A stretch of DNA of 58,334 nt, from the NCBI GenBank assembly GCA_037446635.1, contig JBBIIG010000025.1, positions 1 through 58,334 on the forward strand, given 5' to 3'. Made by a program: the position numbers and the translations under genes. Within the stretch, counting starts at the first letter, position 1. Every line of letters starts with the position of its first letter. Source of the DNA: a bacterium. Lineage in GTDB: Bacteria; Zhuqueibacterota; Zhuqueibacteria; Oceanimicrobiales; Oceanimicrobiaceae. This document shows, piece after piece, positions 2 to 41,986 of the stretch. Under the pieces are notes generated by a model. That model saw only the letters and a program-made list of their open reading frames with translations. It had not been told where the DNA came from and made no database searches.

Positions 2-3000
2 TGTTGTTCGAGATGTTCTGATACTGTGCGGATGGAGGTGGCGCAGATGTTGAAGCCGGAACCGCCCTTCACCGGCGGCGCGTCGAATCGCGTTTGTTGG
101 TTTCCGTTTCACGATGCCAGCTCGGAGCTTTTTTCCTTTCCAGCGTCGGGATTAAAAATCGCGCAGCGGAACAGCCGATCGCAAAGCGATGAGGATTGTC
201 ACGTGATTGAAAACTTAGCAGAGGGGGTTCGCTACGGCTATTATTTGCAATCAACCTTTCTCCGCGATGGACAGCTCATGACCATACTCTCCGACACCGT
301 TTACTCCACCCAGGACAACTCCTCGCCGCCGCCTGTGAGCCTCAACGATTTTTCGGTCAGCGGCGCCGGCGACGTGACGCTGCGTTGGCGACCGCCCACC
401 GACGAGATTAGCTACATCGACAAATATATCTTAAATCGGAAGGGCGCTTCTCAAACAAATTTTTCTGCCATCGACACCTTGTCGGTTTTTCCGGTCACCA
501 ACATCGCTCCCCAAAATTATTATCCGGTCCGCATCTCCACCAGCGAAGCCATCTACTTGGATGAGACGGTGACCCTGCTGGGGGTGTCTAATTTACTGCA
601 AGGCGCGGCGATGATTAAAACCGCCGTGGCCGACCGCTGGTCTGAGCCGGAGGCATTTCTTTCTTTTAATCTTGAAGCGCCGGCCAAGATTTACATCGCT
701 TTTGACAAGCACACCATCAAGCCCACCTGGTTGGAAAGAAATTTTCGCACCACTCGCATCAACGTTCGCACCAGCAAACATCCCGATTCCCGGCTGCGGC
801 TTTGGGAAAGTCGAGAGACCTACCAGCCAGGCTTAGTTACTTTGGGCGGTAATTTTTCCGAAGTGCAGGGCCTGCCCTTCGATGCGCCGGAGATGTACGT
901 GGCGTTCATTCAGCCCGTGGGCGGGGCGTTCCCTTACGCCATCGATGGTTTGCTTAGTTATAGCGATACGCTGGGCGTGGCCAGCGACCAGCAAATATTT
1001 CAGTACCGCATCGATGCCATAGACGCCGCTGGCAACGTGAGCGAGGGCGCGGATTCGCCGCTGGTGATTTTGGATTTGCACGGCCGCTGCCGTCCGAACA
1101 TCGCCAACTGGTTTGCTTTCCGCAACCAGGCGGGGAAGGAGTTTGGCAAGGGAGTGTCAAACTCCATTTGTATTCAAGATCCGACGACCCAAGCGGAGTG
1201 CGTCGGGTTTCGCAATAGTGACTCCCTGCGTTTTCAGGCCGCGCGCCAAAACCCCGGACTTTTTGAGATTCACCGTGAGGAGGATGTCGGGGCCGTCTTT
1301 TTTGACAGCGGCTGGATCGCCGCCGCAGATTTGCCGGCGCCGCTCTGTTTCGAGTTCAATCTCCTGCCGTCCGGTCGCGACGCCAATTTTGTTAACGGTC
1401 AAACTTACTATTACCGGGTGCAGGCCAAAGACGTTCACGGCAACCTGAGCGCCTGGTCGGACACCGTTTCCGCGGTTCAAGATGCGTTCCCACCGGAGGA
1501 CATTCGCAGCCTGCGGGCGCAGAATGAAATTTTTCCGGATCAACAAAATGGCTGCGTCGCTCTGACCTGGCTGCCGGCCGCCGATCCCGTCAGCGGCGTG
1601 GGGCAGTACTATATTTACCGCAGCGACGACGGCGTTGTTTTTTCAGTCATCGACTCGCTTGCCGCCGAGCAGACCAGTTACTGCGATTCGCTGTCGAGCA
1701 TCGCGGCCAATCGCATCGTTCATTATAAAGTGGTGGCCGCCGACCGCGTGGGCAACCGCCGCCGTCTCGAAGATTCAGATCAAATCGTGACTCTGCGGGC
1801 GCTGGTGGGGCCGCACATCGAGTTGACGGACACGCCGACCATCGAGTGTCCTCCTGGTGTTGTGGCCGTGAAGAACGACACCGTCTTTGTGCGCTGGCCG
1901 GATTTCGATAATACCGGCGTCGCTCACTACGAGTTCGAGATCGCCGCGCCGGCGCAGCAGACCACCACGATCGATCTTTCACCCGGCAGCGTCAATCAAG
2001 CGGCCGTTCCGTTAACCGGCGTCGATGGTTTTTACACCTTGCGGCTGCGGGCCTTTTACATCGATGGCAGTTCGACGATTTACTCCAACCAATTGACCCT
2101 CCGCAAAAAAACTGCTTTGCCGCAGGTGCAGCTCCAGGTGCAACAGGACAGCCAGCCCACGGGCAACATTTTGCTTTCGTGGTTTCACCCCGACGGCGAC
2201 GAAATTGTCCAGTTTCAAATTTTTCACTGGGTGGAAGGCCAAAGTCCGCCGCCGCAGCCCACCATCGTGTTTCCGGGCGACAGCCTGCGCTGGGTTCACC
2301 GGTTTATCGAGGACGATCTTCTGGCGTACCAATGCAATAACTACGTGATCAAAGCCGTCGATTGTTTGGGGCTGGTTTCGGCGGGCGAACCGCCGGCGGC
2401 GCAGTACTCGAATCGCCCGCCGGTTTTCGATGCGACGCAAACGGCGATCGCTTCCGACGACATCACCGTGTGCTGGCAGCGCCCGGCGCCGCGGCGCAAC
2501 CAAGACGGCGCGTTCGAAGCGGAAGTCACCGTCTTCCGGGATTCCCTAAATTCGACGCCGCTGTTGCAGCAGCGCGTGCTCAACAAAACCTGCTTTACGC
2601 TGTTCGACGCCGCGCCCCGCCACAATTACATTTTTCAGGTGCGCGAAATCCTGCTGGAAAATTCCGGCCAAGCCTGCGCCGACAGTTTGATTAGCGGAGT
2701 CTCCACCCCGCTGATTGTTCCGCTCGACAATTTCCCGCCGCCGGTGGCGTTTGACATTCAGGCGCAGCCCGTTCCTCCCACTGCCAGCACCGGCGAAGTC
2801 TTTTTAAGTTGGCAGGGTTACCCCGGCCGCAACATCAGCCGCTTTCTGGTGACGTGGTCGGTGGTTGGTGAGACCAGCGAAGATTCGTTGACGATATTTG
2901 AAGGCGACACCGCCCGCGTCGGCGGACTGAGCATCGCCGAGAGCTATCGCTTTTCAGTTATTGCTCTCGACAATCTGGGGCAGCTTTCGCAAGACAACCC

Positions 3001-4297
3001 GTCCAAAACAGTCGATTTTAAACCGCGCTGGCTTTTCACTCCGAAGATTAAAAGCTTCAACCCCAGTTGCTTCCGCGACAGCGTGACGGTCCAGTGGCAC
3101 TGGGTGGACGAAAACGGCCAGGAGGCGAACAGCCAATTCGGCGCGGACAGCATCATCGTCGAGCTAAGCATCGACCCTAATTTCGAGTTCAGAAAATCCA
3201 CCACCCGCCTCGATTTGCGGACCGAGTTTCTGTTCCGGCGCAGCGAGCACTACCCGTTCGTCAACAATCAGAACAACCAACTTCACGCACGCATTCGCGC
3301 CAAAGATCGCTGGAATCACTCGTCGCCGTGGTCAACAGACTATCCGGAGCTGGGGTCGCTTTCTGAAACCTACGATGAAATTCCACCGTCGCCCACCGCA
3401 GTGGCGATCGATTCCACCAAAGCCCCGATTTTTGGCGGGCAGCAAGAGTTGAATGTGTTTTTGAGTTGGCCGGAGGCGAGCGACAATTGCAGCGGCGTGT
3501 GGTTTTATGAAATTGTGCGCAACAGCGAGGTGATCGGCCGCGACACCAGCCGCGTCGCCAAGCACCAGTTTGTTGACCGCCGCTTGCCGATCGACGAGGG
3601 GCTGCTGGACATTCGCTGGAGTGTGCACGCCGTCGATCGCGCCGGCAACCGACAGGCCGTCGCTACCTCTGTGGGCATTCCGTTTATGCTTTCGCCGCCA
3701 ATCGCTGCCCAGTGCACCAATGACACCACTTTGTGCTGGAGCCCGACCGAGCTTGGCGCCGAATCGATTTTTTATTTTGTCGAAGGCGCCCGCTTCGTGG
3801 AGTTGTTCGGCAACCCGGAAACCAACATTCTCGCCGGACCGCTCACCGAGACCTGCCTGAATTTTTCGGTGCCGTGGGAGACGATTTACTGGCGTATCAA
3901 AGCGCGGGTGCAAAATTTTGAAAGCGCGTGGTCGGATACGTTTTTCTGCGCCCTCAACCCGCAGCAGTTGGCGTCCGTTCTTGGCGGCGCGACAAATTCT
4001 TTGCCTAACGTTTTCGAGCTCCATCAAAATTATCCGAATCCATTTAATCCGGCAACCACCATCCGTTTTGCGATTCCATTTAGCGCGGATCGGGATGGTC
4101 GCGTCCTGCTGGAAATTTATAATATCGCCGGCCAGAAAATCCGCACGCTGGTGGATGAGCCGCGCGGCCCGGGCGAGTACTCGGTGGTTTGGGATGGCCG
4201 CGACGACCAGGGCCGACCGGTCGGCAGCGGCGTGTTCGTGTATCGCATGCGCGCCAACAATTTTGTGGCCACACGCAAAATGATTTTTTTGAAGTGA
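2..4297 (+). CDS. Large secreted Cys-rich FN3/Ig-repeat protein with C-terminal FlgD-Ig/T9SS type-A-like sorting domain (5'-truncated)
   Basis: Frame is open to the window edge. FN3-like segments (VTLRWRPP, YYYRVQAKDVHGNLSAWS, VALTWLPAAD). C-terminus HQNYPNPFNPATTIRF...LEIYNIAGQKIRTLVD...WDGRDDQGRPVGSGVFVYRM...RKMIFLK. Confidence 0.85.
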   Translation, partial: CCSRCSDTVRMEVAQMLKPEPPFTGGASNRVCWFPFHDASSELFSFPASGLKIAQRNSRSQSDEDCHVIENLAEGVRYGYYLQSTFLRDGQLMTILSDTVYSTQDNSSPPPVSLNDFSVSGAGDVTLRWRPPTDEISYIDKYILNRKGASQTNFSAIDTLSVFPVTNIAPQNYYPVRISTSEAIYLDETVTLLGVSNLLQGAAMIKTAVADRWSEPEAFLSFNLEAPAKIYIAFDKHTIKPTWLERNFRTTRINVRTSKHPDSRLRLWESRETYQPGLVTLGGNFSEVQGLPFDAPEMYVAFIQPVGGAFPYAIDGLLSYSDTLGVASDQQIFQYRIDAIDAAGNVSEGADSPLVILDLHGRCRPNIANWFAFRNQAGKEFGKGVSNSICIQDPTTQAECVGFRNSDSLRFQAARQNPGLFEIHREEDVGAVFFDSGWIAAADLPAPLCFEFNLLPSGRDANFVNGQTYYYRVQAKDVHGNLSAWSDTVSAVQDAFPPEDIRSLRAQNEIFPDQQNGCVALTWLPAADPVSGVGQYYIYRSDDGVVFSVIDSLAAEQTSYCDSLSSIAANRIVHYKVVAADRVGNRRRLEDSDQIVTLRALVGPHIELTDTPTIECPPGVVAVKNDTVFVRWPDFDNTGVAHYEFEIAAPAQQTTTIDLSPGSVNQAAVPLTGVDGFYTLRLRAFYIDGSSTIYSNQLTLRKKTALPQVQLQVQQDSQPTGNILLSWFHPDGDEIVQFQIFHWVEGQSPPPQPTIVFPGDSLRWVHRFIEDDLLAYQCNNYVIKAVDCLGLVSAGEPPAAQYSNRPPVFDATQTAIASDDITVCWQRPAPRRNQDGAFEAEVTVFRDSLNSTPLLQQRVLNKTCFTLFDAAPRHNYIFQVREILLENSGQACADSLISGVSTPLIVPLDNFPPPVAFDIQAQPVPPTASTGEVFLSWQGYPGRNISRFLVTWSVVGETSEDSLTIFEGDTARVGGLSIAESYRFSVIALDNLGQLSQDNPSKTVDFKPRWLFTPKIKSFNPSCFRDSVTVQWHWVDENGQEANSQFGADSIIVELSIDPNFEFRKSTTRLDLRTEFLFRRSEHYPFVNNQNNQLHARIRAKDRWNHSSPWSTDYPELGSLSETYDEIPPSPTAVAIDSTKAPIFGGQQELNVFLSWPEASDNCSGVWFYEIVRNSEVIGRDTSRVAKHQFVDRRLPIDEGLLDIRWSVHAVDRAGNRQAVATSVGIPFMLSPPIAAQCTNDTTLCWSPTELGAESIFYFVEGARFVELFGNPETNILAGPLTETCLNFSVPWETIYWRIKARVQNFESAWSDTFFCALNPQQLASVLGGATNSLPNVFELHQNYPNPFNPATTIRFAIPFSADRDGRVLLEIYNIAGQKIRTLVDEPRGPGEYSVVWDGRDDQGRPVGSGVFVYRMRANNFVATRKMIFLK

Positions 4298-4330
4298 CAG
4301 TGAGCCAGCTTGCAAAATGGAGGGGCGGAG

Positions 4331-7291
4331 TTGAGTAGAAACCGTTTGACAGTTTCTATTTTCGTCGGGTTGATCTGTCTTTTTCAAACCGTTTCACGAC
4401 CGACTCTTGCGCAGACTCAGAGCGAGGTTTGGCCGCCGCTGCCAGATTTTATTCAGGCGCTCAACTTCGACGCCTGCATTGCGGACGCGCCGGCGCCGGC
4501 GCTGCGCCTCGAGCCGCGCTTCACCCGCGGCGCCCGCAACGTCATCGCCATTGAACTGCCGCCGCTTTCCGCCCTGCCGTTTCCGCCGGATACCGTCCGC
4601 AACCCCATCGTCATCACTTTGGTGGGCGATGGCCAACCGCCGCTGAAATTTCCGCGCCCGGTTCAGCTTGGGGCTGACGCGCCGATTTTGGAAACGATCA
4701 CGGCTTTGAAAAACGCGGTTCGTTATTACTACACCACCGCGCTGTTTTTACCGGTGTGCAAAGTTCCCTGTTCGGCGGTCGCCGACACCAGTCAATTGGA
4801 GCTGCACTGCAGCGCCTACGAGGACACCGTGTGGTCCACTCAGGACGCCGCGCCGCCGTCGGTCGCCAACGTCGTCATTCCACAATTGAATTCCTCGCCG
4901 GTTACGGGCTGGTGGAATCAATCGGCCTTTGAAATTCGCGCCGACGTCAGCGATCCCGCCGGCGTCTGGCAGGCGTTTTTGTATCGGCGCGAATGTTCTC
5001 AAAATGAGTGGAAGGCGGCAGTCCTCGACACCACCTTCCCCAGCCGGCTCGATTCGTTGGGATTTATTTTTGAAGAGACCACCCAAGCGCGCTTTAGGCA
5101 AACGTTAGCCGATGGCTGCTACGAGTTTCGCCTCGAAGCCAAAGACGCGACCCACACCCCGGAGAGCTTCGCCCCGAATTTTGTGCTGGCCGGCAACGGC
5201 GGCCTGCCCGCCCTGGATGCCGTGCCGCAGATTCGCATCAGCATCGATACCACGCCGCCGGACAGCGTGACCTTAAGCGCCCGGCAAATACTGAACGCCA
5301 TCGAATTAAGCTGGAACGTCCCAGGCGATCCGTCTCCCGGAATTGGGCTGGCGGGATATCGCATTTACCGCAACGGCGAGCTGCGCGACGAGATCTCAGG
5401 CGGAGAGAACTCCTACAGCGATTCGTTTGCAGTGGATTCGCCCACGGCGGTGTTCGAGTACCAAATCCAGCCCTTTGATTCTTTGGGGAACGTCCAAGCC
5501 GCCGGCGGTCGCGCCCAAATCGAATTCATCGGCGTTCCCAAAATTACGATGATTCCCGAACCCGAATTTACCCCCGGCGCCGAAAACCAGATTTGTTGGG
5601 TCGGCTCGTCGGCCGTGGATTCCTACTCCGTTTATGTTGCGGAGAACTGCGAACCGGCCCAAAAAATCAAATTTGATACTGCGGACACCTGTTTCACCTT
5701 CAGCGGCTTGCAGGACGGCACTGCCTATTGCTACTGGGTGGAAGCCGTCGATCGCCAAATGCGGCCGCTGCTTTCTGACACCGTGCGCTCCACCCAGGAT
5801 GCCAGCCCGCCGGCGATCGCGCGGCTCGAAATCGAAAATCCCATCGTCATCAACGGTCGCAATTGGCTGACGCGTCGTGAGGTAGAAATTCGACTGAGCG
5901 CTGACGATCCCCCGCCGGGGCGAATGCAGTCCATCAAAATTTTTGAAAACGCTCAACTGGTCGCGGCACTGGCGCCGCCGGCTGAAACTGGGTCAGTGGA
6001 GATGATCATCCCAATTACGCTCGCTTCGGCCGAGTGCGAGGAAATTGCCATCCGCGCGCTGGTGGAAGACCGCGCCGGCAACGTCAGCGTGCCGGAATTT
6101 TTTAGACTGAAATTAGATGCGACGCCGCCTCCGCCGCCCAGCAACTTGAGCGCGAGTCAGCTCGCCCGCGCCAACGCCGTTCGCTTAATTTGGGACGCGG
6201 CGCCGGAAGCCGCGGGCTGCAGCGGTTTAGCGGGCTACCGCATTTTGCGGGATGGCGCCGAGATTTTCCGCGCTCATGCCGACAGCACCGGCTACACAGA
6301 TGTGCTCGCCAGCACCACCCCCAGCGGGCGAATCGCTTACGCGGTGCAACCATTCGATTCGTTGCAAAACCTTCAGCTCGCGGGCTTGCCCGTTGAAATC
6401 GATTATCAGGCCGCGCCCACCATCGCCGTGCAGGCGCTGCCGGAGTTTACCCCCGGCCTGCGTGCTGAAATTTGCTGGCAGGTTCTCGGCGAGTTGGTTG
6501 CATTGAAATTGTTTGTCGATGGCGGCTGCGACAGCAGTGTCGATCAAGCGGTCGAAATTGCCAACCCGGCGGCGGCCAGTGGATGCCAGCTGCTCGGGGG
6601 CTTGGCCGATGGCCAGCGCTACTGTTATTGGCTGCAGGGCATGGACGCCCAGCAGCGCACGGTGTTTTCCGACACGGTGTTTTCCACTCAGGACGCCACG
6701 CCGCCGCGGATCGATGCGTTCGCCTTTCCCGCCGGCGAGTCGTTGAACGGACAAACCTGGGCGTTCTCTCGCACCATCGAACTGCAAATTGTGGCGCACG
6801 ACGCGCCGCCGGGAGAAATCTGGCGCGTTGAAATTGTCGAAAATAATTCTTTGCCGATCTCATTCAGCAACCCGGATTCCTCGGCGCAGATGAACCGGCG
6901 TTTTACTTACAACATTCTCAATCGGGAAACGCAGCCCGCCGCGGTCAATTTGCAAGTGCGGGTTTTTGACGGCGCCGGCAACGCCAGCGCCGAGGCGCCG
7001 CTCAGCCTGCTTTTTCAGGACCAGGCGCCGGGCATCTATGCTTACCCCAATCCTTTCAACCCAATGAAGGGGGAGACGATCATCCGCGTGAGCGACCCCA
7101 ACGAGTCGGAGGTGAAGATTTACGATTTCTTCGGAAATTTAGTGCAAACGTTGACGGACAAAGAAAACAGCCGCGATTTTAAATGGAACGGTCGCAACGG
7201 CGACGGCGAGCTGGTGGCCAACGGCGGCTACATTTGCATCGGCAGCCGAACCAAAGCGCGCTTTAAAATTGGCGTGGTGAAAAAGAATTAG
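4331..7291 (+). CDS. Secreted FN3-repeat protein with C-terminal FlgD-Ig/T9SS-like sorting domain (second CTD subtype)
   Basis: ORF 4310-7291; TTG at 4331 follows GGAGG/GGAG. Signal-peptide-like N-terminus. FN3 motifs (ELSWNVPGD..LAGYRIYRNG). C-terminus YAYPNPFNP...KIYDFFGNLVQTL...WNGRNGDGELVANGGY...KIGVVKKN. Confidence 0.82.
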   Translation: MSRNRLTVSIFVGLICLFQTVSRPTLAQTQSEVWPPLPDFIQALNFDACIADAPAPALRLEPRFTRGARNVIAIELPPLSALPFPPDTVRNPIVITLVGDGQPPLKFPRPVQLGADAPILETITALKNAVRYYYTTALFLPVCKVPCSAVADTSQLELHCSAYEDTVWSTQDAAPPSVANVVIPQLNSSPVTGWWNQSAFEIRADVSDPAGVWQAFLYRRECSQNEWKAAVLDTTFPSRLDSLGFIFEETTQARFRQTLADGCYEFRLEAKDATHTPESFAPNFVLAGNGGLPALDAVPQIRISIDTTPPDSVTLSARQILNAIELSWNVPGDPSPGIGLAGYRIYRNGELRDEISGGENSYSDSFAVDSPTAVFEYQIQPFDSLGNVQAAGGRAQIEFIGVPKITMIPEPEFTPGAENQICWVGSSAVDSYSVYVAENCEPAQKIKFDTADTCFTFSGLQDGTAYCYWVEAVDRQMRPLLSDTVRSTQDASPPAIARLEIENPIVINGRNWLTRREVEIRLSADDPPPGRMQSIKIFENAQLVAALAPPAETGSVEMIIPITLASAECEEIAIRALVEDRAGNVSVPEFFRLKLDATPPPPPSNLSASQLARANAVRLIWDAAPEAAGCSGLAGYRILRDGAEIFRAHADSTGYTDVLASTTPSGRIAYAVQPFDSLQNLQLAGLPVEIDYQAAPTIAVQALPEFTPGLRAEICWQVLGELVALKLFVDGGCDSSVDQAVEIANPAAASGCQLLGGLADGQRYCYWLQGMDAQQRTVFSDTVFSTQDATPPRIDAFAFPAGESLNGQTWAFSRTIELQIVAHDAPPGEIWRVEIVENNSLPISFSNPDSSAQMNRRFTYNILNRETQPAAVNLQVRVFDGAGNASAEAPLSLLFQDQAPGIYAYPNPFNPMKGETIIRVSDPNESEVKIYDFFGNLVQTLTDKENSRDFKWNGRNGDGELVANGGYICIGSRTKARFKIGVVKKN

Positions 7292-7300
7292 TTACGAGTC

Positions 7301-7424
7301 GCAAAGCGCAGAGCGCATAGAGCTCTTTGAGGAGCAGGTACCGCGAACATGAAGAGCGAACAGCGTAAAGCGTGGAGCGCAAATTCGCTCTACGCGCTTC
7401 GCTCTACGTTTTCGTTCTACGTTT
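7301..7424. repeat. Inverted arrays of degenerate 7-mers (AGAGCG/CGCTCT type), hairpin-forming intergenic element
   Basis: agagcgaacagcgtaaagcgtggagcgc followed by cgctctacgcgcttcgctctacgttttcgttctacg. Confidence 0.6.
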
Positions 7425-7483
7425 CCAGATAACGCAAACAAATGTTTTTGAAACAGAGCACTAAGTAAAGCGAATCAGGTGCG

Positions 7484-9559
7484 ATGCGAAACGGTTGGAT
7501 GATTTTTCTTTTGATTGGGCACGTGATGTTTGCCGGCAAACTGACGGCGCAGGGAAGCGCCGGTCAGGCCGGCGAATTTCTCCGTTTCGGAGTGGGCGCG
7601 AAAGCGCTGGGACTGGGCCGCGCCTTCACCTCCGTTGCTGACGACGCCAGCGCGCCCTATTGGAATCCGGCGGGGCTCTCGGCGCTCTCCCGCAGCGGCG
7701 GCGCGTTCATGTTCATGTACCTGCCGCTGAAGCAGGGGGCGTCGTTCAATTACCTGGCGGGCGGCATCCCGCTGCGTTTGTTTTTTGTGAAATCCAACAC
7801 CCACAACCCCTTTCTGAATTTCGTGCAGGATTTGAATATTGGCGTCGGTTTTCTTTGGCATTCGTTGGGCGATTTTCAATTTTATGATGACAGCGGTCGC
7901 CAGAGCGAGGCCTCGCAGACCGCCATTTCGCAATCGGCGTTGTACGTTTCCGTTTCGTATCCTCTGCATCAGCTTTTGAAGGGCAAGAAATTTTTGAGCT
8001 GGGGGAAATTTCTGCGCGGAAATTTCGATCTCGGCCTAACCTCGAAATTCGTGCGCTCGAATTTGTTTGGGGAAGGCGGCGGCGCCACCAGTTTCGATTT
8101 GGGATTTAAATACAGCCACCACTCCGGCGCCGTCAATTTGGGATTGACGATTCGCGATTTGAACCAGGCCAGCATTTCGTACGGCAGCGGCGTCGCCGCC
8201 GATAAAATTCCCGTCAATGGCGCGCTGGGGATTTCCGTGCGTCCGCCGTTCGGCCGGCTGCGCGGGCTGCTGCTGGCGTTCGATTACGGCGTCATCGCGC
8301 CGGGGCGGCGCAGCCACGATCGCATGTTTGGCCTCGAATACGATCTTTCGGTTTTGCGCGCGGACTTGCCCATCAAGCTGCGGCTGGGCGCCAATTCCAA
8401 TCACGAGGCCATCACCTTCGGCGTCAACTTCAGTCCGGAAACCCTGCTGGAGCGCGATTGGCTGCCCTCCGCGGATTGGACGTACGCCAACGACCGCAGC
8501 GCCTTCGACGCCACCGGCGCGCGTTTTTCCTTTTCGGTGGATCACAACCCCTTTACCGCCCGGTATTGGTATTTCAGAGCCATGGCCGGGGGCAGCAATT
8601 TTGAACAGCTCGCCAATCGCGAACAAACGCTTCGCTACTTGCAAAACGCCCAGCAGGCGAAAAATCCCGGCGGCCGCGCCTATCGCTACGAGGCGGCGCT
8701 GCGCCTGGCGGACGTGGAATTCGTTTCCGCGATTGCGGAGCTGCTCAACAGCAGCCAGCAGAGTTCCCTCGATAACAAAAATTCGGCGAAACACTTCGAG
8801 CGCATCGGCGAGTTGTTTACCAAACGCGCCCATCCTCTGCTGCAGGCCGATTTCGGCAAATCCGCCGTGGACAGCGCCGCCTACTGCCGATCGTTCGCTT
8901 ACTTCGTGCAAAGCCTGATTCTCGCCGCCAACTATGACGACGCCATTCAAGCCTGCGCAGACAGCGGCCAATCGTGGGGCAAGCGCATCAACGTTTTTTA
9001 TGAGCGCCCGGGCAACCACACCACGGAAACCGCGCCGCACGTTCACTACCTGCAGGCGTTTGCATTGTATATGAACCATTTCCAGCAGGATGCCATTAAC
9101 ATCGCCGCCGAAAAGTTAAGCGGATTTAGTCTGGCGCAGTACCTGCGGGGGCACATTTTATTTTTGCAGGGGGATTACCTGGGAGCGGCGGCGGAGCTGG
9201 AGGCGATTGATCTGAACGATTCGCACTTTCCGCCCGATCTCTTTTTGCCGCTGGCCAGTGACCGCCGCTTCGGTGACGAAATTCTTTTTCTGAAAGCCGC
9301 GGCGCTGTATAAAATTTCGCCGCACGCCGCCGGGCAATACATTGCCGAGTTCGCCAAAATTCCGCGATTTTTCCCGGATTCAGATATGGCAAAATTCTTA
9401 ACCAACGGGCCATCGCTTTTGGCAAGTCTGATGACGCATTTTGATAAGGGCGAGATCGAGCAGGCCGCGGCGTTGGTGGAAAAGATCATCGAGTCGTATC
9501 TAAAAGCTTTTTCCAGCGGCACGCTCAAAGAGGAGTCTTATACGTTTAACTTTAGATAG
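7484..9559 (+). CDS. PorV/PorQ (UPF0164, FadL-like) outer-membrane beta-barrel with ~330 aa helical/TPR-like C-terminal extension
   Basis: Signal peptide, then the family motif AGEFLRFGVGAKALGLGRAFTSVADDASAPYWNPAGL. Amphipathic strands (FDLGFKY, LRLGAN). Helical C-terminal half. Confidence 0.8.
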   Translation: MRNGWMIFLLIGHVMFAGKLTAQGSAGQAGEFLRFGVGAKALGLGRAFTSVADDASAPYWNPAGLSALSRSGGAFMFMYLPLKQGASFNYLAGGIPLRLFFVKSNTHNPFLNFVQDLNIGVGFLWHSLGDFQFYDDSGRQSEASQTAISQSALYVSVSYPLHQLLKGKKFLSWGKFLRGNFDLGLTSKFVRSNLFGEGGGATSFDLGFKYSHHSGAVNLGLTIRDLNQASISYGSGVAADKIPVNGALGISVRPPFGRLRGLLLAFDYGVIAPGRRSHDRMFGLEYDLSVLRADLPIKLRLGANSNHEAITFGVNFSPETLLERDWLPSADWTYANDRSAFDATGARFSFSVDHNPFTARYWYFRAMAGGSNFEQLANREQTLRYLQNAQQAKNPGGRAYRYEAALRLADVEFVSAIAELLNSSQQSSLDNKNSAKHFERIGELFTKRAHPLLQADFGKSAVDSAAYCRSFAYFVQSLILAANYDDAIQACADSGQSWGKRINVFYERPGNHTTETAPHVHYLQAFALYMNHFQQDAINIAAEKLSGFSLAQYLRGHILFLQGDYLGAAAELEAIDLNDSHFPPDLFLPLASDRRFGDEILFLKAAALYKISPHAAGQYIAEFAKIPRFFPDSDMAKFLTNGPSLLASLMTHFDKGEIEQAAALVEKIIESYLKAFSSGTLKEESYTFNFR

Positions 9560-9571
9560 CTAACTTTTCTA

Positions 9572-29028: not shown

Positions 29029-30321
29029 ATGAAATTAGCAAGCGCTGTTGTGGTCCTTACTCTTCTTGTTACCATCGGCGCCAGCTTCCATGCGCTGGCT
29101 CAATCAGAAGAGGGGCAGGTCTTTCAATTAATCAGGGGGATCGATACGAAAGTCATCAATTTGTACGTGTTGACCGAGCAGTTTCACTTCGGCACGGCCA
29201 CCATCAAGCTCACCCTGGATGGCTCGGGCAATGTCGCAGGGTTGCCTCAGGTCGAAGAGGATGCGGCCCGCCGCGGCAAGGAGGCCTTTGCTGAGGCGCT
29301 GGTGAATATCATGAGCTCGTGGAAATTTACTCCCGGGGCGAGCGGCCCGATGTATGTCACCGTGGCGGTCCCCAGCGAAGGAGAAGCGGAAACTGAGGGT
29401 AAAATCGCCAGCATTTCCGTTGATTTGAAAAGCCTGGCTTTGGCGGAAGGCCTCACCATTGGATTGGAAAAACCCCAGGTGCTGGGACTGGTGGCGCAGG
29501 AGGGATTTTATGACAATGTTTATTTGGCCGGCGCGCCACCCAAGGTCATCGAAGCTTATGAAAAAAAGGGATACGTATTTCTTGGTGGTGTTTGGGGGAA
29601 GCTCGGTCCGTTTTTCCAGGTTGTTTTTACGATTTTGTTTTTAGGCCTGGTGGGAACGTTAGTTTGGTCTTGGAAAAAAGTTTTCCGGCCCTGGGAACCA
29701 ACGATCAAGGGGCAATCCGGTGGGTTGCTTTTTTGGAGCCGAAAAAAAGCGAAGCGTAATGGATTTGAGAGCGAACCGGCCAAGCAAATCGAAGAACTGT
29801 GGATTAAAGCCATTCACAACAGCCAGAATGGGGACGATTGGGATAACGGTGGAAAGCCGCATATCATTGGGGCCCTTGAGATCTGCAAACAGCAGAAAGA
29901 GAACTACCCGTTGTTTGAGATTTTCGAGTCCGGACTTCAAAATCATCTGGTTAATGGCAACAAGTGGTGGACGTCTCAGGAGGTCGATCGCGCGGTGGAT
30001 CGCACCGCCGCCATCCGAGTTGAAGAGCGTCGCGGACCTTTGGACTGGCTTTGGGCGATTGGCAGCTTGAGCCCACTCTTTGGATTGTTCGGAACCGTCT
30101 GGGGCATCTCGCAGGCGTTTGGCAAAATCAAAGGTGTAACCGATACCCGTCTTTTGATGCAAAAGCTGGCGGGTGACATCAACATTGCCCTCTCCACCAC
30201 TATTGTGGGTTTGTTGTTGGCGGTGCCGGCTTTCATTTTTTACTACTATTTCAAATACCGGGTCGATAACGATGCCACCAGAATTGAGCGCTATTTTGGA
30301 GAGATTACTAATCGTGCTTAA
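29029..30321 (+). CDS. ExbB/TolQ family protein with N-terminal TonB-C-like periplasmic domain
   Basis: ATG 29029 follows GAGGAGAGG. IKLTLDGSGNV...IMSSWKFTPG. ExbB motif SPLFGLFGTVWGISQAF...AGDINIALSTTIVGL. Confidence 0.82.
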   Translation: MKLASAVVVLTLLVTIGASFHALAQSEEGQVFQLIRGIDTKVINLYVLTEQFHFGTATIKLTLDGSGNVAGLPQVEEDAARRGKEAFAEALVNIMSSWKFTPGASGPMYVTVAVPSEGEAETEGKIASISVDLKSLALAEGLTIGLEKPQVLGLVAQEGFYDNVYLAGAPPKVIEAYEKKGYVFLGGVWGKLGPFFQVVFTILFLGLVGTLVWSWKKVFRPWEPTIKGQSGGLLFWSRKKAKRNGFESEPAKQIEELWIKAIHNSQNGDDWDNGGKPHIIGALEICKQQKENYPLFEIFESGLQNHLVNGNKWWTSQEVDRAVDRTAAIRVEERRGPLDWLWAIGSLSPLFGLFGTVWGISQAFGKIKGVTDTRLLMQKLAGDINIALSTTIVGLLLAVPAFIFYYYFKYRVDNDATRIERYFGEITNRA

Positions 30322-30331
30322 GGGTCAAAAT

Positions 30332-31561
30332 ATGTTCAAAAAAGTTTTGCCGATTTTGGCGATCAGCTTGGGGGCTATCTTCGGGGGAGGGCTACACGGT
30401 CAGATACCAGCGCAGGATTCGTGTCTGGTCAGCTTTTCACAAGTGGATTTTATCCAGCGCCCGAGTCCGGCGGTGAAGTTAGCTTGGAATCTTTACGGGA
30501 AAGCGCCGGGGCAGGACTATTTCGAGGAAATCGTCGATTCAACCCTGCAATATATCTTGACCATAAATGACGAGCCCATCGTGGTACGCGGTAACAGTTT
30601 TGTTTATGAAAAAAATCTCAGCCCCGGTTTAGTGTATCGTTGTCACATTGCGCTCTTTCCGAATCAAGCCAATTATCAGGATGTTACTGAGTATGTGAAT
30701 GACAAGGAAAGCAAAAAATATAAGGAGAGCAAAAAATATAATGAAGCACAATTTAGGTTGGTCATCACAAAGAGCGGGCTTGAATGGGTATGGTTACGGG
30801 AGTGGTGGAAACATGTGAAGGATTTTTTTGACTACGGCCGCGTGCTTGGCATCGCGCACATCCTGACTTTTGTTTTCATAATTGGATTAATCTGTTTCTT
30901 GTTCTATTTTGTTAAGCTCTTTTGCCTGCCCAAGAACTGGAGCCGCTATATTCTAAAGTCAGCGAAAGAGTTTGATAATGGACGCAATCATACTTCCCAT
31001 AAGGGGCCAATTGCCAAAGTTGAGGAAGCTCTCACCCAAAAATTAGAAATGTACGACATGAAAAACACGGAGACGATAGCTGATGATGAAGACTCTCACA
31101 AATTGAAACGCATTGAGAATTCTCTTAAGGATAGCATAGCGGCGGAGCTCAGAGGAATTATAACTATTGACTTGAGTCGTTTGCCAGGGCGCAGATGGAA
31201 GAAGGCGGTGGATTTCTTCTTCTCTATAGAACATTTTTGGCATTTTGGAGTGATTGCGCCGTTTTTGGGTTTGTTGGGAACGGTGACCGGCATTAGCAAA
31301 GCCTTCGGCACGGTTAGTATTTTAACCAATCTGACCGAGCTCAAAAATGTACTGAACAAGCTGTCCAGCGGGATCAACGAGGCGCTTTACACTACCATTG
31401 GCGGGCTGATCGTGGGCATCTTTTTCGTTGGCGTCTACTATCTTTTCGTTTGGCGTCTTGAGGAAATTCGCAAGGCCCTGGACAAGGCGTGCGACCTCAT
31501 CATGAAAAAAGTTGAGAGGAGAGAATACTTTTATGCCAGCAAGATTTTACGAACGCCGTGA
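30332..31561 (+). CDS. ExbB/TolQ family protein with N-terminal FN3-like periplasmic domain
   Basis: Signal peptide from ATG 30332. VKLAWN...NLSPGLVYRC. APFLGLLGTVTGISKAF...SSGINEALYTTIGGL. Confidence 0.85.
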   Translation: MFKKVLPILAISLGAIFGGGLHGQIPAQDSCLVSFSQVDFIQRPSPAVKLAWNLYGKAPGQDYFEEIVDSTLQYILTINDEPIVVRGNSFVYEKNLSPGLVYRCHIALFPNQANYQDVTEYVNDKESKKYKESKKYNEAQFRLVITKSGLEWVWLREWWKHVKDFFDYGRVLGIAHILTFVFIIGLICFLFYFVKLFCLPKNWSRYILKSAKEFDNGRNHTSHKGPIAKVEEALTQKLEMYDMKNTETIADDEDSHKLKRIENSLKDSIAAELRGIITIDLSRLPGRRWKKAVDFFFSIEHFWHFGVIAPFLGLLGTVTGISKAFGTVSILTNLTELKNVLNKLSSGINEALYTTIGGLIVGIFFVGVYYLFVWRLEEIRKALDKACDLIMKKVERREYFYASKILRTP

Positions 31562-32282
31562 GCGCCGGGAGCCGGAGAAGACGCCGCTCATCGACGTAAT
31601 TTTTCTGCTCCTGATTTTCTTTTTTGTTACGGTGGTGGGGTTGGATGTGAGCCACAAACCCACTCGTGGGGCAAGAAGCAGCGGCACCCAGAAAAAGCTC
31701 GATCTGCTGCCGATGATCAATCCGCCGGAAACCGCTCCCGCGGAGCTGAGTGAGGTGGTTTTGATTCAAGTGCAGCCGGGCAACGCCCTCAATGCCAGCC
31801 AAATCGGCGAGCTAAATGTTCTGATCGATCAGGCGAATAACTTGCCGGGCAGGCCCTTCGGCATTTACCCGCAGATTTCGCCCGATAATTTTTTGATTTT
31901 AGTATTTGATGAAAAGTATGCCGACATCGACTTCATACCCAAATTCATCGGTGATCTGCGCGAGGCATTGAAAGTTTACCGGCCGGAGGCTCCAGACACA
32001 CTTGCGGGGAAGATTCGGCAGCTTATGGATCAATATCTTCCCATCAACCTGCCGAAACGAGGGGTTGATAATTTTACTACACTCTATAAGCCGTCTATAG
32101 ACACGTTGCGCGAACGGGTGAGACGCTATTTTCAAAATAGACGCGAGCGCGAAATTCACATTCGAATGGATAAGGAAGTGTATGTTAAGTTTATCGGTGA
32201 ACTCTATGAAATTTGTAACGAGCAAAACATTGACGTCGAGCACCTTAAGTTCCGCGTTCTCGAACAACGAATTACTTCATAA
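31533..32282 (+). CDS. ExbD/TolR family protein
   Basis: TPLIDVIFLLLIFFFV with conserved Asp. IHIRMDKEVYVKFIGELYEIC. Confidence 0.85.
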   Translation: MPARFYERRERREPEKTPLIDVIFLLLIFFFVTVVGLDVSHKPTRGARSSGTQKKLDLLPMINPPETAPAELSEVVLIQVQPGNALNASQIGELNVLIDQANNLPGRPFGIYPQISPDNFLILVFDEKYADIDFIPKFIGDLREALKVYRPEAPDTLAGKIRQLMDQYLPINLPKRGVDNFTTLYKPSIDTLRERVRRYFQNRREREIHIRMDKEVYVKFIGELYEICNEQNIDVEHLKFRVLEQRITS

Positions 32283-32298
32283 CCGATGAGTCAAACCC

Positions 32299-32886
32299 AT
32301 GTCGAAAGCAAATCGAATCGAAGCAACCAAAAAAATTGAGTTGGTGCCGCTGATCGATGTGATATTTCTGCTGTTGATCTTTTTTTTGGTGACGCTGAAC
32401 ATCATCCCCATTCTCACCCGCAAGGAGATGCGCGAGTCGCAATTCCCGGTGGAGGTGATTACCGCCGAAGATGCGGCGCGGGTGGATATGTTGATTCAGC
32501 TCCACCAGTTTCCGGATGACAGGTTCAACCGCGTCTTTTATTTTACCATCGATGGCGACCTGCCCTGGCTGGGGAGGCCGGAAATGACGGGGGTGTTAGA
32601 GAGAATCCCGGAATTTGCCCGGTCGATCTCCACCTTAGGCGCATTGCGGACGCGCTTTCCGGGGCATTTTTTTGAACGTCCCGAACAAATTCCCTATCCC
32701 AAAAACGGGGAAGTGATCATCAGCGCCAGTGAGTGGGTGCCTTATGAACGATTGTTCGAGGTAATTCAGGGATGCGATCGCCGGGGGGTTAGTAAGAAAC
32801 ACTGTGTCGTGGGCTCATTTGAAGAACTGCAGGATAAAATTAGACCCACGCCGCCGGAACAAATTGTCGAAAAGTATGAGCATTGA
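32299..32886 (+). CDS. ExbD/TolR family protein (second)
   Basis: IELVPLIDVIFLLLIFFLV. VIISASEWVPYERLFEVIQGC. Shares CV.G..E with 12219-12791. Confidence 0.85.
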   Translation: MSKANRIEATKKIELVPLIDVIFLLLIFFLVTLNIIPILTRKEMRESQFPVEVITAEDAARVDMLIQLHQFPDDRFNRVFYFTIDGDLPWLGRPEMTGVLERIPEFARSISTLGALRTRFPGHFFERPEQIPYPKNGEVIISASEWVPYERLFEVIQGCDRRGVSKKHCVVGSFEELQDKIRPTPPEQIVEKYEH

Positions 32887-32901
32887 AAATGTAGAGGTTC
32901 T

Positions 32902-33585
32902 ATGAGAAAGAAAATCGTGACGCCACGCCGCTGGCGATGGCCTGTGCTGGGTTTGGCGCTGGTGGCGCTGCAGTGTGGAAAATCCACATTGACGGTGGAG
33001 CCCATTCAGCTTGATACCTATTTCGCCCACAAACGAGTTGGGGTGCAAAGCATCAGCATCGAGCAGAGCCGCGTCATTCGCTATTTCGGCTTTCTGGGGG
33101 TTGCTTCGCACCCGGCGCGATTTGATTTGAACAAAGTAAAAGAGTTGGGAGGGAAGCCGGGCTACACCAATCAAATATCTTTAGAAATTCAAAACGGGCG
33201 AATAGTGGGCCGGCCAATTATCCGGGGCACGCTTGAACCGAAAGTCGATACCTACATCAGCGATATTGTCAGCCGTTGGCAAAACAGCGACGGCCCGCGC
33301 TTTACGGATTTTGTTGAACGGCTGAGCATGAAAATTATCCTTGATCAAAAGGGTACGATTCAAGTCGAATATAACGACCTGCAGGTAACGCAACCGGAGC
33401 AGCCATCGGAAGCCTACCGTTTTTTCAACCACGTGAGCCGGGATCCGGCTAAGATGCGTTTTGTGCTGCCCGTTAACGGGTTCAACATTACCGCGGTCAA
33501 AACGACGCAAGCGGTGGATAGACAAATTCAGACCCTGAATTCGCAATTGGCAAGATGGCGTCGGCAGCCCATGCCGGCTGGTTAA
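32902..33585 (+). CDS. Divergent TonB-C-like protein, possibly a lipoprotein; positional paralog of 12788-13381
   Basis: LALVALQC N-terminus. SHPARFDLN...YISDIVSRW aligns with RHPLPLDWN...YIHKILSTW. Confidence 0.55.
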   Translation: MRKKIVTPRRWRWPVLGLALVALQCGKSTLTVEPIQLDTYFAHKRVGVQSISIEQSRVIRYFGFLGVASHPARFDLNKVKELGGKPGYTNQISLEIQNGRIVGRPIIRGTLEPKVDTYISDIVSRWQNSDGPRFTDFVERLSMKIILDQKGTIQVEYNDLQVTQPEQPSEAYRFFNHVSRDPAKMRFVLPVNGFNITAVKTTQAVDRQIQTLNSQLARWRRQPMPAG

Positions 33586-33612
33586 AGAAACATTCAACAT
33601 TGGAACGAAGTT

Positions 33613-36600
33613 ATGAAAATTACTTCCAAGAGACTGCGAAACTTCCTTTTAATTGTCGGCGCGAGCCTGTTGATTCCAGCGCCGAGGGCACATGCCCAAA
33701 CGATTTATGAGCGCTTAGAAAACCGCGTTATGGACTCGGTCAACCAGTTTCGCAGTGACCCCAAGAGCTTGAACCCCAACAGCGCACAAGCGTTGATTGA
33801 TTCTTTAGAAAGTTACACACCGCGGGAAGCGATTGAGCGCTTTACAATACCTTATTACTCCGGATATTTGCATTACATTCTGGCCTTGCGTCAGAATAGT
33901 GCTGCGATATTGGAGCGCGCGCGTCAAAAGTTTGAAGACGCTTATCAAGCCTACGCCGATACGATTCAATTGCCGGAGCGTAAAGTTTTTGCCAGATACA
34001 TGAAAGCTTGGTGCACCTTAAGAAAATTTTTGCTTTCACCCAATTTGGATTCCGTTGGTTTTCTGGATGAGGCTAATCGCGAGTTTGATGAAATAGTTCG
34101 CAGAGAAAATCACGCCACAAAATTGCGCAATGATATTTATTTTCTTAAAGGCTTCTGCAATTTTCTCTTTTGTTATGAAAAATTTAAGAATCGAGAAATC
34201 GCTGAAGCGAAGCTGGAATCGGCGATCGCTGATTTTGAACGGGTTCCGGAAGGGCAGGGCGATCTCAGCCACTTGGGTCAGTTTTATGCCGCCGCCGCTC
34301 ACTACCTGCGCGCCCAATACCGGATTTTGACTTATCTGTTACAGGGACAGCCCATTCCAACCAACACCAAACCTGATTTTGACTCCACTCAAAAAAATTT
34401 CAATAAACTCACTACGGAAAACAACTGGCAAACGCCAGCTATCTTGGCTGACGATCTGTCTCGATTACAAACCGCCACGCTCTCCGATTCTCCCCCTCGT
34501 CCAGAGAACTTGATACTCAGCAGCATGACGGGCGAATTGATTAACCTGCTGACAGAATATGCGTTTGCGCTCATTTTTTTTAGGACAGATGAAAACTTAG
34601 GGGATGCGAGTGGGGCTGGCGAAAGAATGTTTTGGAATGATTTAAAATCCTATTTGCTGTATCTTAACAACCAGTCCCCTCCGCCACCATTTCAGAACCT
34701 CCAAATTTCGGATTGGCGCGCTCCCTCTTTGGCCGCAACCGCGGCTTTCTATCGTCGAGAAATCGCCGTCCTGAATAATCGATCGCTGGATTCTTCGCCG
34801 GACAGCTTATTGCTCATGCCATTCCATCGGCAAAGAAATTGGTTTTTGGAGATTTATTCTCGTCTGAAGAATGAGTTAAGAAAAAGCGAAACCGGTTATG
34901 AGTTATCGAGATTTTCGGGCAGTGATGGTGTGAGAGGATTGGTTGGCGACGAGTTTATTATGAATCAAGTGAATCAATTCTATCGAAATAACTTTCAAAA
35001 CAACCATGATCGCGTGTTCGATTTTGCCAACTACCTTTTGACGCTTGCCGAAAAGAATAATCGACTTTACCCCGTGGCCTATCTATCCTACGAATACTTG
35101 CGGCGAAGAAATTATCAGCCCCAAAAAATGACTCTGCTGAAAGCCTACTGCGAATACAAGTTTGGCGATTATAATCAAGTCACAACTTTGTTGAGCGACG
35201 CGGTCATCGGCGAGTTTGATGCTCCTGTTAAGAATGAGGCGATTTACCACCGTGCCATGGCTTATGCTAAAATAGGCGATTGGAGCAGTCAAATGATAGC
35301 TGATCTTGAAAAAATAAAAAATAGCCATCCATACGCTGGTTATAAGTTAGGGTGGGAACGGGATGTAAATAATCCCGACTGCAATTTACTGAATCAAGTT
35401 TACACACAATCTAGGGGAGACGCCCGGTTTGCCAAAATAACCAAAGCCTGTGAAGATATCCCTAAAGAGAGATGTACCATTGCACTGGTTTCCACTCCTC
35501 CGGCGGTTATCGTTGGCGATGATGATGTCCGATTTGAGTATTTAAATGAAAGCTTAGACCGCTTCCGAGCAGCGGAACGTCAGTTTCTCTCCCACTTTTG
35601 GCAGGTGTTTTCGCTGCCAATTCTTCGGCCTATGCCGGTTTTAGACGTGGCTGAGAATTGCCCTATTTTGGGACCCAAAGAATTTGATTTGGAACAGGAA
35701 ATCAACGTCCATCTGGTATTGGGGCACGACGGTTACGCGAAGCAAGTCGTTATGTTCAGTGAAAACATCGGGCCTCTGATTGATACAACCATAACGGAGG
35801 CCAGACTGCGGGTACCAGCGTTGGCCTTGCGTCCGTACACCATCATGGTTGGGATAAAGGGGTATTTCCCGGCTGTTCTTGAAACGTCGTTTAAGCGCAA
35901 CGAAGATACCATCACCCTACAATACGACGAAGCCAAGATTGTGTCGCCCAAGAGCGCCCCGGATGTTCTTGGACTAACGGTAGATATGGAGGGGGGATTT
36001 TATCTTGCCTCCAGGAATGGGGAGTCCGGCGTGCGAATCTACGATGGCGGAGGCAGGCCGCTAAGCGACTCGGAAGGAAATTATCATGCCATGACCGCTA
36101 TCGGTGAAAATTACTACGTCGTGGATCGCTCGTTAAATAAAATTAGAGTATTTAACAAGGACAGAAAGAAACTTGAGAATCTCCCGAATTTTGACGAGAG
36201 CCTATTGCACAGCCCGAGCGATATCGCCGCTATTGGCAACGAGTTATTCATCGCCAACAGCGGCAACTACAGCGTGGTTAAGTACAATGTCGAAACTGCT
36301 ACGACACAGACTTATAAATTGAGTGGGTTAGGTAGAATCGAGGGGCTGGCAGTGTTACCGGGCAAGGTGTTTTTAGCGGACTGGCTGAACAACTCCATTT
36401 ATTCCTCGAATCATGATTTCTCGGAAATCAAGGAGTTCCTTTGTCTAGAAAGGGCGCGAGAAGAAGGCATGATCGCCCCCGGTAGAATATCTGTGGTTGA
36501 TGACGATCATATCATCGTTTCCGATGTGCTCGCCAATAAGTTGTTTTTATTCCACCGCAGCGGAGTTCTCATCGAGTCGTTCGCACTCGCAAGCGATGTT

Positions 36601-36786
36601 TATCTTCCGAGCATGGTAACGATGACCAAAACCAAGCTCTCGGTTTGCCACGGCACGGGAATGAGCGAATATTCTTTGCAGCCGAACATCTCATTTAGCA
36701 AAGAGTTGCCCCGCTGCAAAAATGTGGATCCCGACGCCCCTCGCCGGACGTCTTCTGTTAGCGGCGCTAGCCGATTTTGTTTTTAG
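33613..36786 (+). CDS. Exported TPR + NHL beta-propeller protein; paralog of 13386-16571
   Basis: Signal peptide. ARYMKAWC corresponds to ARYKLAWS. LHSPSDIAAIGNELFIANSGNYSV. Nearly the same length (1057 vs 1061 aa). Confidence 0.78.
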   Translation: MKITSKRLRNFLLIVGASLLIPAPRAHAQTIYERLENRVMDSVNQFRSDPKSLNPNSAQALIDSLESYTPREAIERFTIPYYSGYLHYILALRQNSAAILERARQKFEDAYQAYADTIQLPERKVFARYMKAWCTLRKFLLSPNLDSVGFLDEANREFDEIVRRENHATKLRNDIYFLKGFCNFLFCYEKFKNREIAEAKLESAIADFERVPEGQGDLSHLGQFYAAAAHYLRAQYRILTYLLQGQPIPTNTKPDFDSTQKNFNKLTTENNWQTPAILADDLSRLQTATLSDSPPRPENLILSSMTGELINLLTEYAFALIFFRTDENLGDASGAGERMFWNDLKSYLLYLNNQSPPPPFQNLQISDWRAPSLAATAAFYRREIAVLNNRSLDSSPDSLLLMPFHRQRNWFLEIYSRLKNELRKSETGYELSRFSGSDGVRGLVGDEFIMNQVNQFYRNNFQNNHDRVFDFANYLLTLAEKNNRLYPVAYLSYEYLRRRNYQPQKMTLLKAYCEYKFGDYNQVTTLLSDAVIGEFDAPVKNEAIYHRAMAYAKIGDWSSQMIADLEKIKNSHPYAGYKLGWERDVNNPDCNLLNQVYTQSRGDARFAKITKACEDIPKERCTIALVSTPPAVIVGDDDVRFEYLNESLDRFRAAERQFLSHFWQVFSLPILRPMPVLDVAENCPILGPKEFDLEQEINVHLVLGHDGYAKQVVMFSENIGPLIDTTITEARLRVPALALRPYTIMVGIKGYFPAVLETSFKRNEDTITLQYDEAKIVSPKSAPDVLGLTVDMEGGFYLASRNGESGVRIYDGGGRPLSDSEGNYHAMTAIGENYYVVDRSLNKIRVFNKDRKKLENLPNFDESLLHSPSDIAAIGNELFIANSGNYSVVKYNVETATTQTYKLSGLGRIEGLAVLPGKVFLADWLNNSIYSSNHDFSEIKEFLCLERAREEGMIAPGRISVVDDDHIIVSDVLANKLFLFHRSGVLIESFALASDVYLPSMVTMTKTKLSVCHGTGMSEYSLQPNISFSKELPRCKNVDPDAPRRTSSVSGASRFCF

Positions 36787-41984: not shown

Positions 41985-41986
41985 AA

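Follow-up and report, generated by a model that had tools for sequence, protein, structure and literature searches.

Paired operons that may couple a dedicated ExbB/ExbD motor to a PorV-like carrier barrel in a host with type IX secretion

In Flavobacterium, according to PMC10994853, the extraction of a carrier with its substrate from SprA is the energised step of the type IX secretion machinery (T9SS), and the same chain moves carrier-bound adhesins. Here we describe an operon, present in two copies on contig JBBIIG010000025.1 of assembly GCA_037446635.1, in which a PorV-like carrier barrel (V) and two proteins with T9SS-type C-terminal domains (CTDs; A and B) are encoded together with an ExbB/ExbD motor, a TonB-C-like protein (T) and a TPR-NHL protein (N). 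The stretch analysed, called the window below, has 58,334 nucleotides and is an entire contig (C25) of the host genome (4.64 Mb, 97% complete). By the source labels of close V1 homologues, the host probably belongs to candidate division KSB1. We consider it probable, though by no means assured, that this private motor pulls on the carrier barrel of its own operon.

The T9SS cognate pairs SprB-SprF, type B CTD-PorP-PorE and PorZ-PorQ resemble the operon in that a CTD gene sits immediately upstream of the PorV-family barrel with which it is paired, the CTD is private and the gene set includes a TPR-plus-propeller protein. The operon differs from them in that V is PorV-like and not PorP-like and bears a helical extension of 330 amino acids (aa), in that N lacks OmpA, in having its own ExbB/ExbD motor, and in that GldLM/KN were not found. 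As in the type B cargo-PorP/SprF-PorE operons, the shuttle gene lies directly downstream of the cargo gene (62/62 loci; in copy 2 once an insertion is removed), whereas the type B CTD, the PorP-family barrel and a PorE with OmpA were not recovered: CHU_C had no match in B1 or B2 and weak matches in two B orthologues, V had no PorP/SprF match, and N had no PorE or OmpA match.

The Agl-Glt core of Myxococcus (AglR/Q/S, GltG, GltD/E/C) and its non-motile homologues likewise cluster one ExbB-type, two ExbD-type, a TonB-C and a long TPR gene. In contrast to these, T has only ~200 aa and no match to GltG, ExbB bears an extension, a T9SS carrier with CTD cargo makes up the outer-membrane part, and the GltG-like locus of the host belongs to another lineage. 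The Vibrio TtpC-TonB2/TonB3 systems also have extra motor-associated proteins in the operon, with the accessory gene last. Among these, TtpC resembles an extended ExbB and TtpD is a TPR protein. Those systems serve TonB-dependent transporters (TBDTs), whereas the present operon goes with V and CTD cargo and its T has no SHLS motif. The Ton (ExbBD-TonB) and Tol-Pal systems share the 5:2-type motor motifs and the TonB/TolA C-terminal fold, but the module has neither SHLS nor a periplasm-spanning linker, and no TBDT, TolB or Pal in the operon. Full-text literature searches, with subscription papers mostly outside them, returned no description of an operon in which a PorV-family carrier is accompanied by an ExbBD motor of its own. 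The main text of the nearest survey, on force transducers (PMC12204202), mentions neither PorV nor KSB1, and its supplements could list such loci.

The two copies and their conservation

The operon runs in the order A, B, V (a PorV-fold barrel with a TPR extension), one or more extended ExbBs, two ExbDs, T and N. The first-pass annotation had placed this order twice, at 2-16571 and 16891-36786, and every gene was indeed found over these spans, all co-directional:

2-4297 (+): A1, surface protein with fn3/Ig repeats and a generic T9SS-type CTD, 5' end missing at the contig start (Pfam/NCBIfam, CTD motif)
4310-7291 (+): B1, fn3/Ig protein with a module-specific (private) CTD, putative cognate cargo of V1
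7484-9559 (+): V1, predicted 14-strand PorV-fold barrel (residues 73-354) followed by an all-helical TPR-like extension (residues 359-690), probably periplasmic (model, fold and profile matches)
9711-11345 (+): ExbB1, likely start 9726; signal peptide, beta-rich N-terminal domain of ~130 aa, MotA/TolQ/ExbB channel
11553-12143 (+): D1a, long ExbD with the transmembrane (TM) Asp
12219-12791 (+): D1b, long ExbD with the TM Asp
12788-13381 (+): T1, N-terminal helix, short Pro-containing linker with conserved PxRPG-G-I-x-I-x-G-P, TonB/TolA C-terminal fold, no SHLS
13386-16571 (+): N1, signal peptide, long TPR-like region and C-terminal NHL beta-propeller, putative periplasmic scaffold
16613-16641 (+): near-consensus sigma-70 promoter-like site upstream of copy 2 (11/12; consensus match only)
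16891-21501 (+): A2, A1 paralogue with a generic CTD
21522-23699 (+): B2, private-CTD protein, putative cognate cargo of V2
23731-26870 (+): inserted open reading frames (ORFs) x1 (three predicted TM helices) and x2, low GC, no Pfam match
26882-28909 (+): V2, extended PorV-like barrel
29029-30321 (+): ExbB2a, ExbB with an N-terminal T-like (TonB-C-like) domain (hhalign)
30332-31561 (+): ExbB2b, second extended ExbB, beta-rich N-terminal domain
31533-32282 (+): D2a, long ExbD with the TM Asp
32299-32886 (+): D2b, long ExbD with the TM Asp
32902-33585 (+): T2, T1 counterpart by position, strongly diverged, possibly a lipoprotein
33613-36786 (+): N2, diverged N1 counterpart

Copy 1 is truncated at the contig start, leaving A1 ~130 residues short relative to A2, and copy 2 has two ExbBs, one of them bearing the T-like domain. 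Between the copies, BLAST gave 35% identity over 1458 aa for A1/A2, 34% for V1/V2 over 191 aa only, and no match for T1/T2 or N1/N2. Because their ExbBs fall into different subclades of the ExbB trees and GC content at third codon positions is lower in copy 2 (0.52-0.62 vs 0.66-0.71 in copy 1), the two copies are ancient paralogues placed side by side. A recent or local tandem duplication was rejected on these subclades and on the low similarity between the copies. An assembly artefact was rejected on the contigs of the runs; the junction between the copies is spanned by contigs of runs X1 and X2, which are possibly a single data set. The segment 23731-26870 has a GC content of 0.33 vs 0.45-0.59, has no homologue among the fetched loci and is absent from related strains. 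Since contigs of 3/4 runs join B2 directly to V2, with no intervening ORFs, the two low-GC ORFs between these genes are an insertion and lie outside the module.

A search with D1b recovered close orthologues across the host phylum. Loci were gathered as 40 neighbourhoods from this search, 74 from species genomes, 80 from metagenomes and 20 further stretches, and those whose ExbB reached 100 bits or more against a module-derived profile were kept, which after removal of duplicates gave 80 loci. The selection is partly circular, the profile being that of the module ExbB, whereas V and the CTD genes had no role in it; as the counts run over relatives, they are not independent. Of the 73 loci showing any upstream gene, 71 have V no more than three genes ahead of ExbB, the remaining two being short contigs, and a CTD gene stood directly before V in all 62 loci concerned. 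The gene set is conserved far beyond the host, and the linkages of V to ExbB and of a CTD gene to V are near-invariant. The copies in the window contain no TBDT, TolB or Pal in Pfam and NCBIfam scans, as first annotated. Around the 80 loci, 88 same-strand neighbours of at least 250 aa carried no label, and their 56 representatives included one TBDT and one OmpA protein, and no TolB or Pal.

A module-type ExbB is encoded by at least 68 of 167 genomes of the host phylum (at most nine candidates per genome were scored; the 167 include G158 and G162, flagged as unpublished) and by 46 of its 105 high-quality genomes. It was also found in 6/121 sampled genomes in the phylum to which G171 belongs (its record bears the title Zixiibacteriota) and in 3/3 in that of G170, and the operon was recovered in three phyla. 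None was detected in families f4, f8, f9, f13, f14 and f15, all of which have SprA. Five other genomes (G007, G009, G011, G052 and G058) carry two operons at separate places. Two architectures were distinguished, type I with one extended ExbB, as in copy 1, and type II with two or more, one having a T-like N-terminal domain, as in copy 2.

Several variants were seen among these loci. Three type II operons (L122, L124 and L126) encode one more extended ExbB behind N and so reach 3-4 ExbB paralogues, and L230 has a second CTD-plus-V pair after N. One branch carries a gene of ~360 aa, gene X, between V and ExbB (L040:9095-10198 and at least 13 other loci); its product has a conserved N-terminal beta domain, a barrel-like C-terminal part and no Pfam match. 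A metagenome scan with the ExbB alignment gave mostly generic ExbBs among the matches listed, and two of the six loci shown were module loci. The T and N alignments contained no stretch conserved enough for a contig scan, and a profile search with N returned only 6 full-length relatives among 7999 candidates.

Carrier, cargo, motor and transducer

The V1 model (pLDDT 85) contains 14 barrel strands followed by ~330 helical residues. In Foldseek its best match was PorV (8gl6_F, E 2e-9), and 8gl6_F and 6h3i_F both came ahead of FadL, in agreement with the extended PorV-like barrel of the first-pass annotation. The PorV_fam profile (NF033709) gave 69 bits for V1 and 75 bits for V2, under its cut-off of 90. 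In profile searches V1 also matched PorV. The extension is conserved and has profile matches to TPR proteins; given the even number of strands, it should lie in the periplasm.

Pfam and NCBIfam assign fn3 domains and a FlgD_ig-type CTD to A1, B1 and A2, and a CTD only to B2. The generic CTD motif was present in 36/50 A tails vs 0/62 B tails at module loci. The host encodes 127 CTD proteins, and 15 of its 24 PorV-family ORFs have a CTD gene directly upstream; the generic motif was found in one of these 15 CTDs vs 85/112 of the others (Fisher p 3e-7). By analogy, the private CTD of B fits the cognate cargo-shuttle arrangement reported for type B substrates (PMC12618676, PMC10202324). In the window and in 12 orthologous proteins scanned, A and B showed only fn3/Ig domains and no catalytic Pfam domain, and they may be adhesins. 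Recurrent triplets of a TBDT, a private-CTD protein and a PorV-family barrel were observed on host contigs C1, C3, C6 and C26.

Three window proteins match MotA_ExbB and four match ExbD above the Pfam cut-offs. The motifs said to be retained in both copies are all there, the TM Asp in 4/4 ExbDs and GL(F/L)GTV and TT in 3/3 ExbBs, and over all loci the TM Asp was present in 143/143 ExbD rows (117 by pattern, 26 by reading); the ExbD TM Asp and the ExbB channel motifs are those of an ExbB/ExbD-type proton motor. With medians of 458 aa for ExbB and 201 aa for ExbD, both are longer than the generic ones of the host. The presence of two ExbD genes, which might have been taken for a special feature, is not one, as host loci on C14, C62, C3 and C38 also have two.

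In a quick tree of 84 ExbB rows, a branch with SH-aLRT 98 lay between 48 module ExbBs and 35 others; a host row that had been cut wrongly (C38) sat inside the module rows on a branch of 6.25 and, after being re-cut, fell outside them in a second tree. In the latter, of 65 ExbB cores, all 37 module rows formed one group (support 89/48). E. coli ExbB and TolQ, two Bacteroidota ExbBs and the six other ExbBs of the host lay outside this group, in trees built without Myxococcus AglR and TtpC.

T was labelled TonB-C-like in the first-pass annotation. For T1 the label stands: its model (pLDDT 91) shows an N-terminal helix, a short linker and a folded domain from about residue 68, and C-terminal domains of TonB or TolA fill the first seven places among its structural matches (Z 6.3-4.7, rmsd 3.5-3.8 over 73-85 residues), the TolA folds ranking just under those of TonB. 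Profile matches of T1 to TonB were at E 0.03-0.4, and Foldseek gave no match at E 0.001. For T2 the label is not borne out by similarity (hhalign probability of 1.7% against the T family, a faint signal) and derives from its position and from an orthologue in L065. T had no NCBIfam match. The N-terminal domain of ExbB2a, on the other hand, is T-like by hhalign (probability 92%, E 6e-7).

The TM helix of T carries the SHLS motif in 0/50 sequences, with a His within the TM window in 5/50, whereas three TonB/TolA-like controls from the host have SxxxH. Only 20-31 residues separate the TM helix from a conserved RPG motif in 43/44 sequences measured, and a conserved G-I-x-I-x-G stretch after the TM helix is unpaired in the T1 model. 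T has a median length of 197 aa and no long periplasm-spanning domain II; in some lineages it has a lipobox-like Cys. As canonical TonB and TolA are defined by SHLS and a periplasm-spanning domain (according to PMC12204202), and T by its sequence has neither, it should be unable to reach the outer membrane alone. For want of SHLS and a long linker, a plain TonB pull on the barrel, as the first-pass annotation could be read, is also unlikely.

N is a TPR protein of ~1060 aa ending in an NHL propeller (above the cut-off in N1, E 0.006 only in N2), and N2 has 24% identity over 1094 aa to its L065 orthologue. A weak YbgF match was obtained in the NCBIfam scan of the module, and Atlas searches gave only leads below 0.9. 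N would be the obvious bridge from T to the outer membrane. A special kinship between V and N was considered and rejected, the profile match being limited to ~95 TPR columns. Inter-protein covariation over 43-55 paired rows gave phylogenetic signal only, without a usable internal control.

Type IX secretion and other motor loci in the host

The first-pass annotation had suggested checking for a host with sprA and porU but without gldLM or porKN. The first half of this pattern is confirmed, the host having the T9SS core of SprA, PorU and PorV (25 PorV_fam matches), and SprA is present in 163/167 genomes of the phylum. As to the second half, GldL, GldM and GldN went undetected in the host, as did GldM and GldN in all 167 genomes, in searches without a working positive control (of those tried, L139 was not a Bacteroidota-like locus and two plasmid records lacked GldN), and GldK reached 56 bits in the host against a cut-off of 350; absence of GldL, GldM and GldN is likely. 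The record of L139 is titled Crocinitomicaceae, yet its genes match the Rubritalea loci L135-L138, and the label is doubtful.

The operon is unlinked to sprA or porU in the host. The neighbourhood of sprA was inspected for a dedicated Ton motor in 8 genomes, over 20 kb, and led to no conclusion: a generic ExbB/ExbD pair lies about six genes from sprA in four genomes of family f7 (L231, L232, L233 and L235), and none was seen within 20 kb in four genomes of other families.

Two other loci in the host are further carrier-plus-motor loci of other lineages. The one at G000:C62:13092-22133 (L244) encodes a CTD protein, a PorV-family barrel with a FlgD-like tail, a TPR protein of 1040 aa, ExbB, two ExbDs, a canonical TonB and a 287-aa protein; its ExbB falls outside the module group, and its TPR protein has close orthologues (E below 1e-120) in 10/167 genomes. 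The other, at G000:C38:21923-31936 (L247), encodes a CTD protein, a PorP/SprF-like barrel (sub-cut-off), an ExbB-like protein, two ExbDs, a 348-aa protein and a TPR-like protein of 521 aa. An Agl/Glt-core-like cluster at G000:C3:55645-65099 (L245) contains TPR proteins, ExbB, two ExbDs and a GltG-like protein with an AgmX/PglI tail; it matches GltG, and its ExbB is also outside the module group. A separate Tol-Pal-like locus is found on C33. Beyond copy 2, consecutive genes at 37259-46843 of the window encode two VWA proteins, of which one has OmpA, then a protein with sigma-70 region 2, a TPR protein and a TPR-CHAT protein of 1618 aa. At 50881-52707, 14 kb beyond copy 2, the window encodes a PD40-repeat protein with OmpA, which was not observed as a conserved neighbour of the module.

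Proposed mechanism, alternatives and meaning

We propose that the operon specifies an accessory machine spanning the envelope and equipped with a motor of its own. A and B would be exported via the SprA translocon of the host. By analogy with cognate cargo-shuttle pairs, the private CTD of B may bind the outer loops of its own V and stay at the surface, with A as a partner, and the helical extension of V, whose fold is predicted and whose side of the membrane is suggested by the 14 strands, would serve as a periplasmic handle. The proton motor of ExbB and two ExbDs would act on T, close to the inner membrane, and the long N would bridge T to the handle. The motor could then pull V from inside, most simply drawing the loaded V-B complex off SprA and possibly repositioning it later. 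In Flavobacterium the energy goes into extraction from SprA, and the simplest form of this proposal is a private counterpart of that carrier-extraction chain.

A private motor pulling on its own carrier is the best reading of the linkage of V to ExbB, the private CTD of B, the fold of V, the motor motifs, the fold of T, the fusion in ExbB2a, the presence of SprA and PorU with no Gld protein found, and the C62 and C38 loci. Several points weigh against it. The fold scores of T are modest (Z below 8, no Foldseek match at E 0.001), and T, the part that would couple to the motor, lacks SHLS and looks like a lipoprotein in some lineages. The link from T through N to V is drawn from gene order and predicted folds, the monophyly of the module ExbBs is weakly bootstrap-supported in the second tree, and the absence of Gld proteins comes without a positive control. 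Finally, 99 genomes with SprA and most PorV-family genes of the host manage without the module motor, so that a private motor is not generally needed for export.

One alternative is a TtpC/TonB2-like Ton system energising TBDTs encoded elsewhere, the CTD proteins and V being co-transcribed surface partners on which the motor does not act. The Vibrio TonB2 operon, as described in PMC6957404, encodes a six-protein Ton system required in siderophore uptake (TtpB, TtpC, ExbB, ExbD, TonB, TtpD), a normal Ton system can include an ExbB with an extension (according to 10.1101/2021.04.21.440815), the closest folds to T are TonB CTDs, and 24 TBDT-barrel matches were obtained in the host, of which several lie directly upstream of CTD-PorV pairs. 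We nevertheless regard this alternative as unlikely: a single TBDT was found among the 56 neighbour representatives from the 80 loci, T has no SHLS and only a short stretch between its TM helix and the RPG motif, canonical tonB_Cterm domains occur in other TonB-like genes of the host, and linkage of the motor to V and B is near-invariant.

A gliding or surface-motility engine, in which an Agl-type motor drags V-anchored adhesins along the cell, also seems improbable. Its parts would be those of the Agl-Glt core (ExbB, two ExbDs, TonB-C and TPR; PMC3169522) joined to a cargo-carrier pair resembling SprB-SprF (PMC12618676), and Ig/fn3-rich A and B would suit it, as would the lack of a FliF match in the host. 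However, there is no exclusion between the module and flagella (FliF in 28/68 genomes with the module and 28/99 without), the Agl-Glt core alone is insufficient for motility according to PMC3169522, and the operon has no cytoplasmic or track components, the GltG-like locus of the host being separate, on C3. Data on motility in the phylum were not found: PMC11683472 contains no occurrence of motility or gliding.

We give still less credence to a Tol-like or PorE-like envelope tether, whose motor would position or stabilise a static outer-membrane anchor of surface proteins. N, with its TPR region and propeller, does resemble PorE and TolB/CpoB as these are presented in PMC12204202, and the weak YbgF match points the same way; cargo-PorP-PorE operons have been proposed as static anchors (PMC12618676), and TolA folds follow closely on those of TonB among the matches of T. 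Against this, the module contains no OmpA or Pal domain and the 56 neighbour representatives include just one OmpA protein, the host has its Tol-Pal-like locus elsewhere, and the module is missing from whole families.

The idea that the module is the general T9SS engine of the phylum, replacing GldLM for all cargo, would suit the near-universal SprA, the undetected GldM and GldN and the 127 CTD proteins of the host, but it is largely refuted by the distribution and very unlikely, as all 99 genomes without a module-type ExbB, including those of the six families named above, have SprA and the operon is unlinked to sprA and porU. Because SprA is found in 163/167 genomes and the module in 68/167, the module is accessory.

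The T9SS of Bacteroidota needs GldLM to pull carrier and cargo off SprA. In the phylum of the host nearly all genomes have SprA and GldM and GldN were undetected, which raises the question of how type IX secretion is powered there. The operon described here reduces the proposed link between a Ton/Tol-type motor and a T9SS carrier to a few defined proteins, which makes the question testable with purified domains, and the two paralogous copies in one genome provide a built-in control of specificity. More speculatively, and with doubts that presently outweigh our confidence, phyla outside Bacteroidota that have SprA without GldLM may power type IX export and surface positioning by Ton/Tol-type motors, each wired to its own carrier barrel via a TPR scaffold; the operon would be an example of this design, its transducer being of a new kind, short, devoid of SHLS and able to occur fused to ExbB, and the C62 and C38 loci would be independent versions. 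If a private motor does pull on V, the ExbBD/TolQR/AglRQS motor family would gain a new output and, with T, a form of transducer that has neither SHLS nor a long linker.

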